A DNA stretch of 64,000 nucleotides. Source: an uncultured Acidobacteriota bacterium (lineage in GTDB: Bacteria > Acidobacteriota > Vicinamibacteria > Vicinamibacterales > UBA2999). Both the position numbers and the translations under genes were made by a program. Where the stretch lies: assembly GCA_963721715.1 (NCBI GenBank), contig CAVRKI010000004.1:1426991-1490990 (forward strand), read 5' to 3'. The notes under the pieces were generated by a model. It made no database searches, had not been told where the DNA came from, and saw only the letters and a list, made by a program, of their open reading frames with translations. Positions 9,439 to 21,359 of the stretch are shown one piece after another (the stretch's first letter is position 1; each line of letters opens with the position of its first letter).

Positions 9439-12400
9439 ATGAGGTCCATGTCTATGCCGTCCCGGTCACTGTTCCGACGCCTGATCGTCCTCGCTGCGTT
9501 CGTCGCCGCGCTGGCGGTTCAAGGCCAGTCATCTTCCGCCCTGCTCAGCGCCCAGGGTGACGCGAACGCGGTGGTGCCGCCGGCCGCGTTCAAGGAACTC
9601 AAGTGGCGAAGCGTGGGTGCCACGCGCGGCGGTCGCGTCACTGCCTACTCGGGCGTGCGACAGCAGCCGCACACGTTCTATTTCGGCGGCGTCGGCGGCG
9701 GGGTGTGGAAGACGGAAGACGCCGGCGGTTCCTGGGCGCCTGTCAGCGACGGCCAGATCGCCACCGGCTCCATCGGCTCCATCGACGTGGCGCCCTCGAA
9801 CCCCAATCACGTGTGGGTGGGCACGGGCAGCGCCGCCATCCGCTCCAACGTCATCATCGGGCGCGGCGTCTACAAGTCGCTCGATGCCGGCAAGACCTGG
9901 CAGGACATGGGCCTGAAGGACTCCGGTCAGATCGGCGGCATCAAGATCCACCCCTACAACACCAACACGGTGTGGCTGGCGGCGCTCGGCTCGCCCTTCG
10001 GCCCCAACGACGAACGCGGCATCTTCAAGACCACCGACGGCGGCAGGAGCTGGAAGAAGACGCTGTTCGTGAACAACGAGACCGGCGGCCGTGACATCGA
10101 GGTGGACTGGGAGAATCCGGACATCCTCTACGCGGCGATGTACAAGGGTTTCCGCAAGGGCTGGGACATCATCAGCGGCGGGCCGGCCTCCGAGGGCGGC
10201 ATCTACAAGTCGACCGACGGCGGCGAGACGTGGAAGAAGATCACGGCCGGACTCCCGGACGACCTGATCGGCAAGATCGACATCGACATCGCGCGCAGCA
10301 ACCCGAAGGTGCTCTACGCGATGGTCGAGGCGCTCGGCGCCAAGGGCGGGCTCTATCGCTCCAACGACGCGGGTGAATCGTGGACGCTGGTGAACAGCAG
10401 CCAGCGGCTGCGCGCGCGGCCGTTCTACTTCCACTACGTCACCGTCAACCCGAAGAACGAGAACGAAGTCTGGGTCAACGAGCTCGGCCTGCACCGCAGC
10501 GTCGACGGCGGCAAGACCTTCACCGCGGTGGAGACGCCGCACGGCGACAACCACGGCATGTGGTTCAACCCGGACAACCCGAGCATCATCCTGCAGGTGA
10601 ACGACGGCGGCGCCAACGTCAGCCTGAACAGCGGCAAGAGCTGGTCGTCGATCCTGAACCAGCCGACCGCCGAGTACTACATGGTGGCCGTGGACGAGCA
10701 GTACCCCTATCGCCTCTACATGCCGCAGCAGGACAACAGCACGCTGATCATTCCCGAGCGTGCCGCCGGTGTCGTGGGGCTTCGAGCACCCGGCACAGGC
10801 CTGGCAGCAGGCCTCGGGCTGCGAGACCGGCCAGATCTGGCCGAAGCCGGACGGCAAGGTGGTGTGGGGCGCGTGCAAGGGCGAAGTGGGCCGCTACAAC
10901 ACCGAGACGGGGCAGGAGAAGCACTACTGGGTGTATCCGCAGAACCGCTACGGCCACGATCCGGACGACATCAAGTTCCGCTTCCCTCGCCAGACGGTGG
11001 TCTACGTGTCGCCGCACGATTCGCGCGTCATCTACCAGGCGTCGCACGTGCTGCACCGCTCGACCGACGAGGGCATCCTCTGGGACATCATCAGCCCGGA
11101 TCTCACGGCCAAGGAACCGCAGTATCAAATCGTCTCGGGCAACCCGATCACGCGCGACGTGACGGGCGAGGAAGTCTACTCGACGATCTACTCGATGATC
11201 GAGTCGCGCCTCGAGCGCGGCGTGATCTGGGTCGGCGCCAACGACGGGCCGGTCAGCGTCACGCGCGACAACGGCAAGACCTGGAAGAACGTCACGCCGC
11301 CGGGTCTCGTGGGCGCGCGCATCCAGACGGTCGAAGACTCGCCGCACGCGAAAGGCCGCGCCTACATCGCCGCCTACCGCTTCATGCGCGAGCACGATCT
11401 GAAGCCGTACATCTACCGCACCGACGACTACGGCGCCACGTGGACGCTGCTGACCGACGGCAAGAATGGCATCCCCGGCGACTACCCCACGCGCGTCGTG
11501 CGCGAGGATCCGAAGCAGCCCGGGCTGCTCTATGCCGGCACCGAGTTCGGGTTCTTCGTCTCCTTCAACGCCGGCAAGAACTGGCAGCCGCTGCAGCAGA
11601 ACCTGCCGGTGACGCCGATCACCGACATCAAGGTCCACCGCAACGACCTCGTCATCTCGACCATGGGCCGGTCGGCGTGGATCATGGACAACGTGACGCC
11701 GCTGCAGCAACTGGCGGCAATCGCCAGCGGCACGCGTCCGGCGGCCACCGCGCCGGGCGCGCAGGTCGCCGCGAGCGCCGCGCCCTCGGGACTCGCGCTC
11801 TCGACGGTGCAGCCGCGCTTCTCGATGGCCTCGCTCTTCGAGCAGGCAGCCGCTCCCGCCGCGCCTCCGGCAGCAGCCGGGGCGATGCCGGCGACGCTGA
11901 TCTTCGCGCCGCGCGAAGCCATTCGCCTGCGCAACAGCGCCCAGCCAGCGTCGCCCGATGCGCCGGAGTATCCCGGCACCAGCGCGCAGATCGACGTCTA
12001 CTTCCAGACCGCGCCGGCGGCCGATACCAAGGTGGAGATCACCGATGCGCGCGGCCAGGTGCTGCGCGCCTTCATGGTGCTGCCCGCGGGCGGCGCCTCG
12101 GGCGGCGGCCAGGAGATGCGCGGGCCGTTCCGTCGCGGCGGCGGCAGCTCGCCGGGCATCAAGCCCGAGGCCGGGATGCAGCGGCTGACGTGGGACCTGC
12201 GCTTCCCGGGGCCCTGGGCACCCAACGCGCCCGAGGGCGGCCCCGGCGGGCCGCTGGTGCCCCCGGGCAAGTACACGGTGAAGCTGACCGCGGGCGGGCA
12301 GACCACCACCCGCACGCTGGAAGTGAAGTCGGACCCGCGCGTCGCGGCCGACGGCGTCACCGACGGCGATCTGTCGGAACAGGTGAAGCTGCAGCTGGGC

Positions 12401-12730
12401 GTGCGCGACGCCGTCAGCGACGCCCGCAAGCTGCAGGTGAGCATCGAGGAGGCCATGAAGAAGGCGGGCGTCAAGCCTGTGGCCCCCGCCGGCCCCGGCG
12501 CGACGCCGGCGTCGACGAAGTACGACCACCCGCTGCAGCAGTTGTGGGCGCAGGTGGCGACCACGCCTGGCATCTACACGCAGGGCATGCTGGTCGATCA
12601 GCTGAACAACGTGCAGCGCATGATCGGCCAGGCGGACCAGAAGGTGGGCAAGGACGCTTACGACCGCTTCTCCGATCTGCAGCAGGAACTGGCGAAGCTG
12701 CAGGCGGAGTTCGCGAAGATGCCGAAGTAG
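9439..12730 (+). CDS. Sortilin/VPS10-type BNR (Asp-box) repeat beta-propeller protein, exported; frame broken once
   Basis: About 10 Asp-box motifs, including TEDAGGSW, SLDAGKTW, TTDGGRSW, STDGGETW, SNDAGESW, SVDGGKTF, TRDNGKTW and TDDYGATW. The N-terminal half is in ORF 9439.., the C-terminal half in ORF 10760..12730. The break is at the ccc run 10753-10755. Confidence 0.8.
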
Positions 12731-12865
12731 GCCGCGCCTTCGGCACGGTAGGGAAGAGCAGGGCCTCGCCGCGCTCGGTCGGAACAGACAGGGCCTCGCT
12801 GTGCTCGGTAGGGCCGCGCTTCGCGCCGTGGGACAGACAGGCCGCGCTCACGCGCGGCAGGGGAC
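12728..12865. repeat. REP-like GC-rich palindromic units (about 5 units)
   Basis: gccgcgccttcggcacggtaggg / cagggcctcgccgcgctcggtcgg / cagggcctcgctgtgctcggtaggg / ccgcgcttcgcgccgtggg / caggccgcgctcacgcgcggcagggg. Confidence 0.85.
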
Positions 12866-12937: not shown

Positions 12938-13597
12938 CTAAGAAAGCGCCCAGAACTCCCCCACGAATCCGTGTCGCGCGAAGATCCCTGCAGCCTCGGC
13001 GGTCGAGGCGCGCTGCCAATCGGGGTCGCATCGGGTCGCGTACCACTCGGCTCCAAGCTCGTACACCCGCTGCGGCGTCCCGACGGCGCCGCGTTGCCGA
13101 TCGGACGCGCGCAGCCAGGCGTCGAGTTCACCCTCCGACCGGAAGGCGCGGATGTTGGCTCAGGTGAAAGCGATGTCATCCCAGAACCGCGCGGCCGGCA
13201 CCAGGAAGTGCACCAGGCCCTCGCCCGAGACGATGCGATCGCGAACCTCGAAGCGAATCGACTCACCGGTCGCCGGTGAGTGGGTGTCGAGCGCGCCGTC
13301 GCCGACCAGCGCCAGGATCGATAGGCCGTCCCACACACAGTTCGCGAACCACGACCGATGTCCCGAACGCACGACGACGTCGGTCTCAATCCCTGAGAAC
13401 GGGTGGGCCATCCACAGGTCGTCGGCGCCCGGGCGCAGCACGAGCGCGTGCGCCTGGGCCAGCGCCCGCAGCGCTGCGGTCACCCCTGCTTCCGTGAAAC
13501 CCAGCTGCGATGCCAGCGCCGAGACGGACGGCGCCTGCCCCTGCTCGAGCAGCGAGCGATAGACAGCGGCCCTCACCTGACGCTCGATCTCTGTCAT
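12938..13597 (-). CDS. MerB-like alkylmercury lyase family protein with in-frame TGA (13160-13162) at the catalytic-Cys position; candidate selenoprotein or nonsense mutant
   Basis: ORF 13160..13597 carries WFANCVWD (the MerB C96-x-x-D99 pattern). The same frame stays coherent past the TGA: ANIRAFRSEGELDAWL...RVYELGAEWY, up to TAG 12938. By recollection this aligns with MerB CCHVHFFASVPTAEDW...EAFGLGQEF. Confidence 0.7.
13129..13148 (-). other. SECIS-like hairpin downstream of the in-frame UGA
   Basis: mRNA reads UGA GCCAACAUCCGCG CCUUCC GGUC GGAGGG UG. This is a 6-bp stem (one G-U pair) extendable by 2 bp, with a GGUC tetraloop occupying nt 23-26 counted from the U of UGA. Confidence 0.4.
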
Positions 13598-13630: not shown

Positions 13631-13702
13631 GTCCCACGCGCCGAAGGCGCGCCTACCGAACGCAGTGAGGCCCTGTCCCCCTACCGAGCGAAGCGAGGCC
13701 CC
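13631..13702. repeat. REP-like units, opposite orientation to 12728-12865
   Basis: gtcccacgcgccgaaggcgcgcctacc ... ccctaccgagcgaagcgaggcccc. The reverse complement matches gggcctcgctgtgctcggtaggg. The TAG stop of 13681..14214 lies inside. Confidence 0.85.
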
Positions 13703-14214
13703 TCCACTGGCTGCGACGGCGTGTCAAGCAGCAGTTGGTAGAACTCGAGATCCAGCCAGCGCCCGAATTTGTAGCCGGCGTGCCGGATCGTGCCGCAGAG
13801 CTGGAAACCCATGTCGAGATGCAGACGGCGGCTGGCCTCGTTGCCCGCCTCGATGCCGGCGACGATGTTGTGGTACGCCTGCTCGCGGGCGCGCGCCACG
13901 GCCGCGGTGATCAGGGCCCGCCCGAGGCCACGGCCGCGATGATCCTTGTGCACGTAGACCGAGTGCTCGACCGAGTACTGGTACGCGGGCCAGGCGCGGA
14001 ACGGGCCATAACTGGCGAAGCCCAGCAGCGTTCCGGCCTCGTCCACCGCGCCGATCACCGGGAACCGGCCCGCCTCCTTTGCGGCGAACCAGGCCTCCAT
14101 CGACTCCGGCGCGCGAGGCTCGTAGTCCCACAGCGCGGTCGAGTTCACGATGGCCTCATTGAGGATGGCGAGGATCTCGACGGCGTGCTCGCGCGTGCAG
14201 TCGATCAGTCGCAT
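13681..14214 (-). CDS. GNAT N-acetyltransferase (phosphinothricin-acetyltransferase-like)
   Basis: Start at ATG 14214 (MRLIDCTREHA) within ORF 13681..14358. Acetyl-CoA site VHKDHRGRGLGRALI. Overall PAT-like pattern. Confidence 0.85.
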   Translation of the reverse strand: MRLIDCTREHAVEILAILNEAIVNSTALWDYEPRAPESMEAWFAAKEAGRFPVIGAVDEAGTLLGFASYGPFRAWPAYQYSVEHSVYVHKDHRGRGLGRALITAAVARAREQAYHNIVAGIEAGNEASRRLHLDMGFQLCGTIRHAGYKFGRWLDLEFYQLLLDTPSQPVEGPRFAR

Positions 14215-14216
14215 CC

Positions 14217-14676
14217 TCAGCCTCGCGGCAGGACCGCCGTCAACTGCAGTCGCTCGTCCGACCCGGGCGCCAGCCCGCAGCTGCGGTACAGCGCGTTCGC
14301 CGCGACGTTGTCCGGCGCCACCTCCACGTGAATGGCGCGGCAGCCCCGGCGCCGGCACTCATCCAGCAGCACGGCCAGCCCCGCGCGCGCGACGCCTCGA
14401 CGTCGATGGTCCTGCTTCACGAACAGATCGTCGATGTAGCCCAGCAACCCGCCGAACTCCATCGCGAATCGCACTGACAACACCACATGACCGGCGGGCG
14501 CGCCGTCCACCTCCAGCAGCCACACCGCCCCACGCGACGAGTCCCTCAGCAGCTCGCGCAAACGCCTGCGCGGCCCAGGCACGGTCCAGCGGAAACGACG
14601 ACTCCACATAGAACTCGGCCATCAGGTCGATCAGCACGGGCGCGTCCGCGGTCGTGGCGTGGCGCACCGCGATCAC
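14217..14676 (-). CDS. GNAT N-acetyltransferase; frame broken once; in frame with upstream DUF488 with no stop between
   Basis: VIAVRHATTADAPVLIDLMAEFY lies in the 14359..15138 frame. It continues as AVWLLEVDGAPAGHVVLS...LFVKQDHRRRGVARAGL in ORF 14217..14609. The shift lies near 14575. Confidence 0.65.
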
Positions 14677-15063
14677 GAGCTCGACCTTCGCGCCCTGCTC
14701 GATCAGTAGCTGCTTCAGGATCGAGCGATGGCAATGCTGTTCGTCTTCGCAATAGCAGCCGACGGAGAAGTTCGTGGTATGCGAGAGCGTGGCGAGCAGC
14801 GCCAGGGCGTGTGCCGCGTCGGGCGCGGCCATCTCCGCCTTGTACTTCTTCGTGAACGTCGCCCATTGCGCCGGCGTCGTCGCGCCCTGCCCCAGCTTCA
14901 TCGTCTCGACGGAGGGGGCCAGGTTCGGGAACCAGACGTCGTACCAGTTGTCGGAGGAGAACTTCTCCTTCGGCACACCGCGCGGCGGACGGCGAACGGT
15001 GCCGATGCGGGTGCCTTCGCCGGGCACGCGGGGAGAGCCGAGACGGACGACCCGCACGCTCAT
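14677..15063 (-). CDS. DUF488-family protein
   Basis: Start at ATG 15063 (MSVRVVRLGSPR). It carries the ...WFPNLAPS... and ...VGCYCEDEQHCHRSIL signature. There is no in-frame stop before the GNAT domain. Confidence 0.7.
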
Positions 15064-15484
15064 GATGTCGCTTCGCTCCGGCGCTTCAGCCCGGCGGCTT
15101 CCATCGCGATGTAGCGGTTGGTGATCCCGCTCGTCCACCGTCCCAGCAGCTTGCCGAGCACGCCGTCGTAGGTGAGGGACAGCGTGACGCGGCTGCCGGC
15201 TGGCGTCGGTTCGATGCGGTGACGCCAGTCACGTGAATGCCCGGCCCGGTCGATTCCCAGGTGAAGCTGCGCCCGGATTCGACCGCGGTCACCGTCCACA
15301 CCGCCGGCGGAAACTTCGGCTGGCGCACCAGCGCTCGTTGGCCCACCGCCAGCGGGCCTTGGCCCCAGCGTTTGATGCCGCGAATGCTGGCGGTCCATTC
15401 GTGCCAGCGCTCGACGTCGCTCATGATCGGCCAGACGCGCGACGGCGGCGCGTCGATCTCGATGTGGTGACTGAAATGCATCAT
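15060..15484 (-). CDS. SRPBCC (START/polyketide-cyclase-like) family protein; frame broken once
   Basis: MMHFSHHIEIDAPPSRVWPIMSDVERWHEW lies in ORF 15086..15829. The C-terminus RIEPTPAGSRVTLSLTYDGVLGKLLG lies in ORF 15060..15509. The shift lies near 15235. Confidence 0.7.
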
Positions 15485-15843
15485 CTCTTGCGCGCCGTCC
15501 ATGCGGCACTCCCGATCGCGGCGGCGATCAGCAGCCACGACACCAGTGGAACCATCAGAAAAGCGGGCGTGGGCCTGGTCCAGCGCATCGTCGCGATGGT
15601 GTACGCGGCCAGCGACGCCAGCGTGATCGGCAGCACCAGCGCCCGCACAGTCGCACCGGCGCACGTGGCCCAGGGACGCGATGACCTGCCGGCGGCCAGA
15701 AGCGCGGCGAACGGCGAGACCACCCACATGAGGAACATGACGAGCAGCGCGCGCGGTGAGTTCCGTCCCACCCACAGCGTCAGTCCCAACGAGCCGCAGG
15801 CGCCGAGAACGGCGACCGCCGCGGGCCATCTGCTGCGAGTCAT
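15481..15843 (-). CDS. Hypothetical 4-TM membrane protein
   Basis: Start at ATG 15843 (MTRSRWPAAVAVLGA) in ORF 15481..16500. Hydrophobic throughout. The stop overlaps the next start (ATGA). Confidence 0.5.
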   Translation of the reverse strand: MTRSRWPAAVAVLGACGSLGLTLWVGRNSPRALLVMFLMWVVSPFAALLAAGRSSRPWATCAGATVRALVLPITLASLAAYTIATMRWTRPTPAFLMVPLVSWLLIAAAIGSAAWTARKR

Positions 15844-15887
15844 GTCGTCGCCGATTCTAACGCGGCGCGCGGCCGCCAGCCGTCGCT

Positions 15888-16526
15888 TCAGCAACTGTTC
15901 GCGAGTTCGCACGCCGTCGGCTTGCGAATGGTCCACACGCCTCGGCTGCAGACCCCGGCGCCGATCGGACTGTTCACGGCCAGCGACCCCTCGCCCGTGC
16001 CGGTGAACGCCGACGAGGCCGCGGTGAACGAGCCGGATAAGTTCGCTGTCGGTCCGGCGGCGCCGCTGAACGTCATGGACGCCACGCCGAAGCTGCCAGC
16101 GGCACTGCGATCGACCGCCGTGCCTTGCGCCGTGCCCGCCATCAGCACGGGTCCGAAAGAGCTCTGAGCGGTGATCAGCCGGAGTTCGAGGTTCCCATCG
16201 TCTGGGGTTGTCGACCGTGCCACCCACGAGCCGCCGTCGCGACCGAGCGTCACGAACGAGAGGATCGAGACGCCGACGAAGGTGCCCGTGCCCGTGCAGC
16301 CCTCGAACGACACCGTCTGGCCGTTGACGACGGGGGTGACGGACGCCGAAGTGACGAGCACGTAAGCGCCTGGCTCCACGGTCAGGGTGGCCGAGTCGCC
16401 GGCACCGCTGGGACTGGAGGGCGTATCCACGCCATCCCCACAGCCCGCGGTACAGACGACGGCCGTGAGCGCGAACACCCGCGCGGCCGACGTGCGCCAT
16501 CTCGCGATCAGCCTGATGTCAGGCAT
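15888..16526 (-). CDS. Hypothetical lipoprotein
   Basis: Intact 212-aa ORF with lipobox-like VVCTAGC. Ser/Thr/Gly-rich beta-type sequence. Confidence 0.55.
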   Translation of the reverse strand: MPDIRLIARWRTSAARVFALTAVVCTAGCGDGVDTPSSPSGAGDSATLTVEPGAYVLVTSASVTPVVNGQTVSFEGCTGTGTFVGVSILSFVTLGRDGGSWVARSTTPDDGNLELRLITAQSSFGPVLMAGTAQGTAVDRSAAGSFGVASMTFSGAAGPTANLSGSFTAASSAFTGTGEGSLAVNSPIGAGVCSRGVWTIRKPTACELANSC

Positions 16527-17421
16527 CGGTGCGCCCCGTTGGTCGCAGGGACAGCTTCAGCCCCTCATGCGAGGCGACGAATCCAAGACGCTGGTAGAAG
16601 CGGATGGCGTCGGCCCGCGACTTGTCCGAGGTGAGCTGCACCACATGGCACCCGCGCTGGCGGGCGCGCGCGATCGCCCATTCCAGCAACTGACGCCCCA
16701 CGCCTCCGGATCGCACCTCGGCGGCGACGCGCACCCCTTCGATCAGCGCGCGCCATCCGCCGCGGTAGGTAATGCCGGGGATGAAGGTCATCTGCAGCAC
16801 CCCGACCACCGCATGGGTGTCGGTCTCCACGACGACGAGTTCGTTGTTGAGATCGCGGTCGATGGCGTCGAAGGCGGCGTAATAGGGCTCCGGCAGCGGC
16901 GTGGTGAACTGCTCGCGCCTGGCTCCCAGCGGATCGTCGGCGAGCAGCCGGACGATGGCTGGCAGGTCCTCTCGGACCGCGCGGCGAAAGGTGACGTGCG
17001 GTGTGGCCGCGGCGCGACCTTCCACCTCGGTTGCCTGCGGGCGACTGTGGCCGGCGTGGTCGTGCGCGTACACCCAGCACTCCCTGCCTGACGCCAGTGG
17101 CGCCCTCAGCCGCACATACGAGAACACGCGTTCGTAGCCGTCGATGCGGGCGAGCTCATCGTCCGTCACGTCGAACACCGTCCCGGCCACACGGCTCGAC
17201 GTGCTGCCAGCGGACGTCACGTTGTTGTGGTGCGTCTTGCCGAGCCTGGCTGCGATGCGCGGGTCCTCGATCCTCACCAGCGAGGGCTCGAAGCCGACGA
17301 GCTCGTCCTGGTGGCCATCGAGCCGCCTCCCGAGCGTCGCGAGCTGCACGTCTTCCTGCTGCAAGGTGCCGTACGAGAACAGCAGTGGCATGGAGCCAGA
17401 TTCTGCCACACCAGCCTTCAC
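16519..17421 (-). CDS. Fusion protein: gamma-glutamylcyclotransferase-like (AIG2/GGCT) N-domain plus GNAT acetyltransferase C-domain
   Basis: The N-terminal LLFSYGTLQQ...GYERV...WVY matches the GGCT-like pattern. The C-terminal VVGVLQMTFIPG...VAAEVRSGGVGRQLLEWAI...FYQRLGF matches GNAT. Confidence 0.75.
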   Translation of the reverse strand: MKAGVAESGSMPLLFSYGTLQQEDVQLATLGRRLDGHQDELVGFEPSLVRIEDPRIAARLGKTHHNNVTSAGSTSSRVAGTVFDVTDDELARIDGYERVFSYVRLRAPLASGRECWVYAHDHAGHSRPQATEVEGRAAATPHVTFRRAVREDLPAIVRLLADDPLGARREQFTTPLPEPYYAAFDAIDRDLNNELVVVETDTHAVVGVLQMTFIPGITYRGGWRALIEGVRVAAEVRSGGVGRQLLEWAIARARQRGCHVVQLTSDKSRADAIRFYQRLGFVASHEGLKLSLRPTGRTDA

Positions 17422-17455
17422 CTCGAGACTCTGTCGAGCCCCGACCGGGAGCCGG

Positions 17456-17764
17456 TCAGAGTTCGAGGACGAACACCGGTGCGGCCGCTACGATCGCCGC
17501 ACCCACCTGCATCGTCAGCACCAGCAGCGCCGGCCCGGTCGCGCGCGGCAGCCACCGTATCGCGAAGAATCCGATGATCGGCACCTGGCCTGCCATGAGG
17601 AGCTGCCAGAGATGCGCGGCGGTTCCTTCATCGGGTTCGCGAACGATGCCGTAGATCGCGAGGAAGCCAACCACAATCGCGAACGCGACCGCGGACATCG
17701 TCAGCGGCAGGAACGCGCTCGGCTTTCCAAGCAAGGTCGAGAACTTCATGCCCCACCTCCTCAT
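17456..17764 (-). CDS. Hypothetical small 3-TM membrane protein
   Basis: Intact 102-aa ORF, hydrophobic, in operon position. Confidence 0.5.
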   Translation of the reverse strand: MRRWGMKFSTLLGKPSAFLPLTMSAVAFAIVVGFLAIYGIVREPDEGTAAHLWQLLMAGQVPIIGFFAIRWLPRATGPALLVLTMQVGAAIVAAAPVFVLEL

Positions 17765-17800: not shown

Positions 17801-18760
17801 TCACGGAACCGGGATGCACTCGAGGTCGTTGCTGACGACCACCGGCCCCTTGTAGGCGGACGACACTTCGCGAATGCTGCCTGGCAGGTCCGACAGACTG
17901 AACGTGTCAGGCGCTGCCTCGAAGCGCGAGGCCTTCGTCAAGTGTCCGAGCACCAGCTTCCTCGCATTGGCTGTGGCCGCCACTTCGCCCACGGTTCTCG
18001 GCGCGGCGTGCAGACCCTGCTGGGTAGCCACCGCCAGCGGCGACAACACCAGGTGCATCACCAGCACGTCGGCGCCGCGGGCGAAGTGGGCAAAGCCGGC
18101 GGTCCTGCCGTTCTGATCCGAGCTGAAGACGATCGACCGATCGCCGACGTCAACGCGGTAGGCGATCGCTGGCGCGTTGCCGTGCGCAACCGGAAGGGCG
18201 GTGACGCGAAGACCGCCAGCGCTGAGCACACTGACCGGGGCCGTGCCGGACGCGTCGACCTCCGTCACCCCCAGTGACACGCCGGCCCCGGGCCCACCGA
18301 CCGTCCCGGAGAGCACCTGGAAGGCGCCGCTCGCACCGTCGAACAACCGGCGCAGGAATACCGAAAGCCCGGGGAAGGCGGGGTTGCCCGACGGCCCGGC
18401 GATCGGCAGCGGCTGCTTGCGGGCGCGTTCGCTGAGCCACAGCAGCGCGGGAAGATCCGCGACGTGATCCGGGTGGAGGTGGCTGATGGCGAGCAGTGAC
18501 AGCGACTCCAGGTCGGCACCGGACTCTCCGAACCTCAGGAAGGCACCGCCGCCGGCATCGATCATCACCGCCGCGCGCCCGCCCACCCACACCAGATAGC
18601 TCGTCGAGGCGCGATCGGTGCCCGCGAACGGGCCACCCGAGCCCAGCACCTGGACACCGAGCGCCGCCGTGCGACACGTGTCCTGCGCCCGGGCCTGCCC
18701 GGCAATCACCAGCAGGCATGCACACACACCGAGTGCCCTGAGACCCGTTGTCGATGCCAT
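17801..18760 (-). CDS. MBL-fold metallo-hydrolase, exported
   Basis: Start at ATG 18760 (MASTTGLRALGVCACLLVIAGQARA). AISHLHPDHVADL (HxHxDH) motif. Confidence 0.8.
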   Translation of the reverse strand: MASTTGLRALGVCACLLVIAGQARAQDTCRTAALGVQVLGSGGPFAGTDRASTSYLVWVGGRAAVMIDAGGGAFLRFGESGADLESLSLLAISHLHPDHVADLPALLWLSERARKQPLPIAGPSGNPAFPGLSVFLRRLFDGASGAFQVLSGTVGGPGAGVSLGVTEVDASGTAPVSVLSAGGLRVTALPVAHGNAPAIAYRVDVGDRSIVFSSDQNGRTAGFAHFARGADVLVMHLVLSPLAVATQQGLHAAPRTVGEVAATANARKLVLGHLTKASRFEAAPDTFSLSDLPGSIREVSSAYKGPVVVSNDLECIPVP

Positions 18761-21336: not shown

Positions 21337-21359
21337 GGGATCAGGGATCAAGGCTTGGG
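21337..21359. repeat. (GGGATCA)x2 plus aggcttggg
   Basis: Read directly. The TGA stop at 21348-21350 of the aldolase gene is part of the second unit. Confidence 0.9.

Follow-up and report, generated by a model that had tools for sequence, protein, structure and literature searches.

A MerB-like gene in the stretch of DNA analyzed here (64,000 nucleotides of contig CAVRKI010000004.1 from an uncultured Acidobacteriota bacterium, hereafter the window) very probably encodes a selenoprotein of the MerB superfamily, in which an in-frame UGA serves as the selenocysteine (Sec) codon. The gene starts with an ATG at 13597 on the minus strand. A first-pass annotation of the window had noted that the open reading frame (ORF) ends at a TGA at 13160-13162 and that the frame continues for 73 codons to a TAG at 12938; our reading of the sequence confirms both, along with the other coordinates and sequence features given there, and places the TGA at codon 146. 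The same annotation had put the gene forward as a candidate selenoprotein, an interpretation supported by the pairing of UGA with Cys in one alignment column, by a hairpin downstream of the UGA and by the predicted fold of a homologue. The gene is laid out as follows.

12938..13597, minus strand: MerB-like read-through gene, 219 sense codons plus TAG, with Sec proposed at codon 146
13427..13591, minus strand: N-terminal winged-helix-like domain, residues 3-57
13040..13399, minus strand: MerB catalytic core domain, residues 67-186, interrupted by the UGA (Pfam, profile alignment and Foldseek)
13328..13339, minus strand: codons of Cys87-Val-Trp-Asp90, equivalent to MerB Cys96-x-x-Asp99 (sequence and alignment)
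13160..13162, minus strand: in-frame UGA, the proposed Sec146 codon, equivalent to MerB Cys159 (conservation and alignment)
12941..13159, minus strand: post-UGA segment of 73 codons, translated only upon UGA decoding, with the end of the MerB domain and a C-terminal extension
12941..13039, minus strand: clade-specific C-terminal extension, residues 187-219 (about 33 residues)
12938..12940, minus strand: true terminator TAG (frame read)

A MerB-like domain predicted to span the UGA

Homology to MerB extends across the UGA. With Cys put at the UGA, the Pfam MerB family (PF03243) matches residues 67-186 (E = 1.5e-18, 67.4 bits against a cut-off of 27), and both pieces of the protein carry part of this match (4e-8 and 33.6 bits for the N-terminal 145 residues, 0.0095 for the C-terminal 73). 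The best sequence relative with a solved structure is MerB2 (5C17), and the family profile also finds the E. coli plasmid MerB structures. In a profile alignment to MerB proteins of the PDB, Cys87, Asp90 and UGA146 of the window protein pair with MerB Cys96, Asp99 and Cys159, and Phe152, Ser154 and Trp161 pair with Phe165, Ser167 and Trp174, at a constant offset of 13 from the UGA onward. The first-pass annotation had placed the UGA on Cys159, with the same three anchors and the same offset, and the profile alignment reproduces this; its equation of C-V-W-D with the MerB Cys96-x-x-Asp99 pattern also holds. Codons 86-90 read N-C-V-W-D, with TGT at 13337-13339 and GAC at 13328-13330. Among homologues Cys87 is invariant and Trp89 nearly so, while Asp90 is invariant in close relatives and is Cys or Glu in several distant homologues of the Cys type.

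Structure prediction points in the same direction. An AlphaFold2 model of a full-length close homologue, P0011 (55% identical), has a mean predicted local distance difference test (pLDDT) score of 97.1 and a predicted template modeling score of 0.92, and the segment past the UGA-equivalent codon has pLDDT values of 92-98. The top 11 PDB matches of this model in Foldseek are all MerB or MerB2, with template modeling scores of 0.56-0.68 for ten crystal structures and 0.46-0.51 for the nuclear magnetic resonance model 1s6l. These predictions suggest that the MerB fold spans the UGA as one domain. The N-terminal domain (residues 3-57) has sub-threshold Pfam matches to GntR, HTH_20 and LexA_DNA_bind, contains three helices in the P0011 model, and lies in a region of the window protein that aligns with the N-terminal part of MerB2 (5c17).

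The window protein and its close relatives, which we refer to as the clade, score below the existing NCBIfam equivalog models for MerB. Against NF009710 and NF033555, with cut-offs of 193 and 200 bits, the window protein reaches 23.8 and 16.5 bits, and the best clade member reaches 47.6 bits.

The UGA codon and the frame behind it are conserved across phyla

Database homologues of the window protein are truncated at the same place. Among 423 protein homologues in a collection of 5.8 billion proteins, we examined the termini of the best 120, and in 117/120 the last residue is the one that precedes the UGA; these proteins end in ...FW-D-D-I-x-[FY]-T. When genomes of 185,579 species, one for each species, were scanned, 140 relatives emerged, the best 80 loci of which were analyzed. 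These loci represent Acidobacteriota, NC10/Methylomirabilota, Thermoleophilia, Acidimicrobiia, Coriobacteriales, Chloroflexota (Caldilineaceae, Promineifilum), Gemmatimonadota, Marinimicrobia, Desulfatibacillum and Gammaproteobacteria, at least eight phyla in all. One of the 80, L056 (1766-2260), is a gene remnant or a chimeric assembly and stands outside the 79 intact loci: in this Thermoleophilia/Actinomycetota metagenome-assembled genome the merB-like gene ends abruptly at about residue 136, with unrelated sequence and then a GNAT-like ORF behind it.

The codon 146 column is TGA in 79/79 intact loci, with zero TGC, TGT, TAA or TAG. In 71/79 loci no stop interrupts the frame for 72-75 codons past the TGA, and the real terminators of the homologues are mixed (45 TGA, 30 TAG and 3 TAA). 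The downstream protein has the consensus ...AFRSEGEL..W...GA.V..Q..Y.LG..WYA.R...W......A...F..HGL.G.FW, and divergence after the UGA is biased toward third codon positions, like that before it. Geomonas sp. RF6, a cultured isolate with a finished genome (CP087999.1), carries both this TGA and the hairpin described below, and its protein appears in RefSeq as a 145-residue "alkylmercury lyase family protein" (WP_230997545.1) cut at the UGA.

These comparisons bear directly on whether the TGA could be a substitution error of sequencing or assembly, or a nonsense mutation in an ordinary Cys-type merB-like gene. The window does derive from an error-prone long-read assembly with frame errors, such as the one that splits a Sortilin/BNR gene near 10750, and the homologous gene at L056 is a truncated remnant. 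However, TGA occupies the same codon in 79/79 independent genomes and in the finished isolate genome, 117/120 of the best database homologues end at the same residue, and the downstream frame is conserved at the protein level. We regard the probability of an error or pseudogene as negligible, and the comparative data exclude it. The first-pass annotation had held that the TGA is not of the error class typical of this assembly, namely homopolymer insertions; the recurrence of the codon in these loci and in Geomonas sp. RF6 shows that it is not an error.

The first-pass annotation had also pointed to this column as the place to look for Cys or Sec among homologues. Alongside TGA in all 79 loci, an exhaustive HMMER search with the C-terminal 73 residues turns up 11 full-length distant homologues whose residue at precisely the UGA column is Cys (P0131, P0149, P0158, P0167, P0215, P0223, P0237, P0256, P0266, P0226 and P0261). 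A conserved UGA, a conserved coding sequence downstream of it and a Sec/Cys pair in one column together make up the usual comparative signature of a selenoprotein.

Could the UGA instead be a true stop, so that the gene yields a 145-residue protein with either a separately initiated partner of about 70 residues or an untranslated downstream part? Gene callers do annotate 145-residue proteins, as well as numerous separate proteins, about 70 residues long, with matches to the C-terminal part. Against this, no start codon is conserved past the UGA, and the first in-frame ATG, GTG or TTG in the window gives a 42-residue ORF without the conserved ANIRAFRSEGELDAWL segment. The stop at this position is always TGA whereas real stops are mixed, the junction falls inside the MerB domain and at the catalytic C159 column, the Cys homologues are single polypeptides, and the read-through homologue P0011 folds as one domain in its model (pLDDT 97). 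A true stop is highly unlikely on this evidence, and Sec insertion at codon 146 is the reading that we prefer.

Two further features of the homologues are worth recording. More than 100 cluster representatives of about 60-75 residues (e.g., P0121 and P0126) consist of the orphaned C-terminal third, called from internal pseudo-starts. Among the distant Cys-type homologues P0149, P0158, P0223, P0256, P0266, P0226 and P0261, many carry C-x-W/Y-C in place of C-x-W-D, with a third Cys replacing the proton donor equivalent to Asp99, and others carry Glu; some distant Cys-type homologues are fused to GNAT or glyoxalase-like N-terminal domains. The replacement of Asp and the N-terminal fusions suggest more functional diversity within the superfamily.

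A SECIS-like hairpin follows the UGA

The RNA from the UGA onward reads UGA GCC AAC AUC CGC GCC UUC CGG UCG GAG GGU G and can form a hairpin resembling a selenocysteine insertion sequence (SECIS).

13129..13148, minus strand: SECIS-like hairpin with an 8-bp stem, nucleotides 15-22 paired with nucleotides 27-34 from the U of UGA

The stem pairs CGCCUUCC with GGAGGGUG around an apical GGUC loop at nucleotides 23-26 from the U of UGA (13137-13140), with a free energy of -12.8 kcal/mol. The window contains the motif TTCCGGTCGGAR a single time, where 0.02 occurrences would be expected. The hairpin and the position of its loop are as the first-pass annotation had described them, and we add covariation and frozen codons to that description.

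In an alignment of 80 sequences, gapless from -3 to +63 about the UGA, standard pairs fill 88.6% of helix cells compared with 77.8% in column shuffles (0/500 shuffles reach the observed value), and sliding the 3′ partners by 1-3 columns lowers pairing to 41-59%. Double-sided changes affect 6/8 pairs (63 cells), for example from GCC...GGC to CUC...GAG or GGG...UCC; these counts come from related sequences rather than independent events, and the pattern nonetheless holds across phyla. The loop is GGUC in 74/80 sequences and GGGC, GGGG, GUGA or GGGA in the other six, always with G as its first base. Codon choice within the hairpin is similarly constrained relative to the rest of the same genes: the Arg codon at +7 is CGG in 76/80 sequences (31% elsewhere), the Ser codon at +8 is TCG in 73/74 (41% elsewhere), and the Glu codon at +9 is GAA in 57/79 (31% elsewhere). 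All four synonyms are in use for the Thr codon directly before the UGA. Taken from the alignment, the hairpin is conserved, with evident compensatory changes and frozen synonymous codons.

The likeness to the E. coli fdhF SECIS proposed in the first-pass annotation is borne out in the loop but is inexact in its position. Both elements are stem-loops just past a UGA with an apical GGUC loop. In E. coli fdhF, which we read for this comparison, the UGA is at codon 140 and the loop is at nucleotides 22-25, one nucleotide closer than in the window gene. The fdhF stem has a bulged U, whereas the clade stem is a perfect 8-bp helix without a bulge. E. coli SelB contacts the bulged U17 and G23/U24 of the fdhF SECIS.

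Evidence weighing against a selenoprotein

Several observations weigh against the reading of this gene as a selenoprotein. First, the structural model described above is that of P0011, a homologue with Trp at the UGA site, and not that of the window protein. Second, Cys at the UGA column was seen in distant relatives only. Third, the hairpin does not stand out by itself: the covariance-model check that the first-pass annotation had suggested gives no SECIS or other credible match among Rfam families at gathering or permissive thresholds, and the minimum free energy fold of the 86-nucleotide stretch is no better than that of shuffled sequence (z = 0.19), so that the case for the hairpin rests on comparative data and not on thermodynamics. 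Fourth, no tRNA-Sec, selA, selB or selD turned up in the 64 kb of the window or within 6 kb on either side of the 80 loci, an absence that is uninformative rather than negative because the window is 64 kb of a genome. Fifth, there is neither a mer or SAO operon nor a conserved neighbor, so an organomercurial-lyase function would be argued from homology alone. Finally, two metagenomic homologues have TGG (Trp) at the codon, with the GGUC hairpin intact.

L083 3001-3663 (GCA_964516145.1): P0011, TGG at the codon
L086 255-950 (JGI 3300064045): P0181, TGG at the codon

We considered whether Trp in these two proteins was produced by translating TGA under genetic code 4 and rejected this explanation, since both DNAs read TGG. 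The most plausible reading of the TGG variants, which lie one transition off TGA, is that they are rare inactive alleles or errors in base calling. Alternatively, they could reflect recent inactivation from Sec to Trp, or could hint at the residue inserted by read-through.

The last of these possibilities leads to a further explanation, in which the UGA is read through by a near-cognate tRNA with a standard amino acid (Trp or Cys) and the hairpin acts as a stimulator, or in which UGA is reassigned. The persistence of the hairpin in the two TGG homologues would fit such read-through, as would the absence of Sec machinery genes from the window and the locus flanks. Reassignment is excluded because TGA is the normal terminator in 45/79 of these very genes. 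As for read-through with a standard residue, the column corresponds to the metal-binding Cys of the catalytic site, distant homologues have Cys there, and a Cys/UGA pair at a catalytic column is the usual criterion for selenoprotein prediction. Furthermore, the GGUC loop is of the fdhF type and lies at the fdhF distance plus or minus one nucleotide, and the TGG variants are rare. We consider this explanation unlikely overall, and Sec remains the residue that we favor at codon 146.

Searches aimed at individual components of the Sec machinery gave the same picture. ARAGORN found no tRNA-Sec in the window or in 60 loci, a tblastn search of the window and the 80 loci with SelA, SelB and SelD of E. 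coli yielded one weak match to a GTPase domain only (L017), and Pfam detected no Sec machinery in 10 large ORFs of the window. Sec users are known among close relatives of the carriers, including Geobacter bemidjiensis, G. bremensis, Ca. Methylomirabilis oxyfera, SAR406, Desulfatibacillum, Caldilinea, Ilumatobacter, Koribacter and Solibacter (Peng et al. 2016, Table S2). Support for the Sec trait in the carriers is at the level of the lineage and not of the same genome.

A scan of the window and all locus flanks for other genes with an in-frame TGA gave none that was convincing. Two candidates in the window, at 21348-21350 and 17801-17803, were rejected as adjacent genes (an HpcH aldolase with a DNA alkylation repair enzyme, and an MBL-fold protein).

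Proposed decoding and catalysis

We propose that a ribosome arriving at UGA146 would meet the downstream mRNA hairpin, whose 8-bp stem and GGUC loop would recruit SelB·GTP·Sec-tRNASec. Sec would be inserted at codon 146, and translation would go on for 73 codons to the TAG, giving a 219-residue enzyme. Both Sec as the inserted residue and the reading of the hairpin by SelB are predictions from sequence. The active site would consist of Cys87, Asp90 and Sec146, forming a site for metal binding and protonolysis of a carbon-metal bond. In MerB, the metal is bound by two Cys ligands and the leaving carbon is protonated by Asp. By analogy, two chalcogen ligands would bind the metal in the window protein and Asp would protonate the leaving carbon.

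The substrate would presumably be an organomercurial or another organometallic compound, and we give an organomercurial about an even chance. Mercury is bound much more strongly by selenium than by sulfur. The strength of the Hg-Se bond makes product release a question.

Relationship to SaoL and other MerB-family proteins

A MerB-like selenoprotein with Sec aligned to C159 has been described before as SaoL (NCBIfam NF040728; Haft & Gwadz, bioRxiv 10.1101/2022.07.06.499078, later J Bacteriol 2023). Since SaoL is already published, the replacement of the catalytic Cys by Sec in a MerB homologue is not a new idea. SaoL and the clade share PF03243, Sec at MerB Cys159, and Cys and Asp at C96 and D99, and the database entries of both are cut at the UGA (those of SaoL before its recognition). 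They differ in several respects. SaoL has a Cys-Sec (CU) dipeptide, whereas the clade has Thr-Sec-[Ala/Gly/Ser], with the residue before the UGA being Thr across the 80 sequences (Ala in one). About 73 residues follow Sec in the clade compared with about 50 in SaoL. SaoL is the marker of an SAO operon of nine genes that occurs in strict anaerobes (Clostridia, spirochaetes and Deltaproteobacteria), whereas the clade gene stands alone and, unlike SaoL, is hosted mainly by Acidobacteriota, Actinomycetota, Chloroflexota, Gemmatimonadota, NC10 and Marinimicrobia. With the SaoL model (cut-off 140), the window protein has no match at E ≤ 1 and clade members score 39-51 bits. Judged by these features, the clade is distinct from SaoL.

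Compared with MerB of plasmid R831b (PDB 3F0P and 3F2F) and MerB2 (5C17), the clade has the same predicted fold (Foldseek template modeling scores of 0.59-0.68, E from 2e-9 to 1e-7, for the P0011 model), an N-terminal helical domain plus a core, and the same active-site columns (C96, D99 and C159), at 18-19% identity in structural alignment. It differs from MerB in having Sec for Cys159, no Cys160, a C-terminal extension of about 33 residues, and no merA, merR, merT or merP nearby.

Catalogues of selenoproteins contain entries that may overlap with these genes. "Alkylmercury lyase MerB-like protein" and "Organic mercuric lyase MerB2" are entries in the catalogues of the Zhang laboratory (PMC9312934; PMC13188914), and an "Organic mercuric lyase MerB2" selenoprotein was counted in 17 organisms, none of them listed (Peng et al. 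2016, Table S3). Some of the proteins counted there may conceivably belong to the present clade. A 2026 catalogue of prokaryotic selenoproteins has only SaoL under MerB (NF040728, CU motif, WP_238493467.1) and treats the earlier MerB-like entry as identical with it. The GOS 2008 paper, which reviews cite for a MerB-like selenoprotein, has no mention of MerB in its text or in the supplements examined. The clade is a currently unannotated addition to the MerB-family selenoproteins and not a new category. That it constitutes a second, uncatalogued MerB-family selenoprotein clade, with a Thr-Sec motif, a C-terminal extension, stand-alone genes and a range of at least eight phyla (mostly from soil, freshwater and marine habitats), is a view toward which we lean slightly.

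To our knowledge, MerB is the only well-characterized enzyme that demethylates methylmercury. The switch from Cys to Sec at Cys159 would now extend to Acidobacteriota, Actinomycetota, Chloroflexota, Gemmatimonadota, NC10, Marinimicrobia and Geomonas. If our reading is correct, selenium-assisted cleavage of carbon-metal bonds, such as the demethylation of methylmercury or of other organometals, would not be confined to the anaerobe-specific SAO system, and selenium-assisted organometal chemistry would be extended to aerobic soil and marine phyla. Such activity may be widespread but hidden by annotation, because every member is truncated at the UGA. Hundreds of database copies would be mis-annotated as 145-residue proteins and orphan peptides of about 70 residues, which a curated model would correct, and surveys that track the degradation of methylmercury by way of merB probably overlook or misinterpret the clade. 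The prediction can be tested directly in a cultured host, Geomonas sp. RF6. Finally, the uniform putative SECIS, with its GGUC loop and fixed spacing over distant phyla, offers a data set for studying recognition between SelB and SECIS outside Enterobacteria.

Genomic neighborhood

The MerB-like gene has no merA, merR, merT, merP or SAO gene beside it in the window. Its neighbors encode GNAT acetyltransferases, a DUF488 protein, an SRPBCC protein and a BNR/Sortilin protein. Clustering of 749 flanking ORFs revealed no neighbor conserved in more than 10/80 loci, and the recurrent flanking ORFs are housekeeping genes common to close relatives.

Upstream of the gene, a run on the minus strand (13681-17487) contains three GNAT acetyltransferases (one fused to a GGACT domain), a DUF488 protein of the active subclade, and an SRPBCC/polyketide-cyclase-like protein; no link of these small genes to the MerB-like gene was seen in other genomes. 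On the other side, the Sortilin/BNR-repeat gene (9439-12730, plus strand) is split into two overlapping ORFs by its frameshift, which is consistent with insertion-deletion errors in the assembly.

Inverted arrays of a GC-rich repeat of 28-30 nucleotides, GGGCCTCGCnnnGCTCGGTAGG, bracket the gene at 12743-12830 and 13638-13701 of the window. Copies lie at 12761-12782 and 12791-12812 on the plus strand and at 13652-13673 and 13680-13701 on the minus strand, that is, 4 matches against 0.19 expected. The repeat has no copies elsewhere in the window or in 85 loci, and may be an element like a repetitive extragenic palindrome (REP) or the boundary of a cassette.

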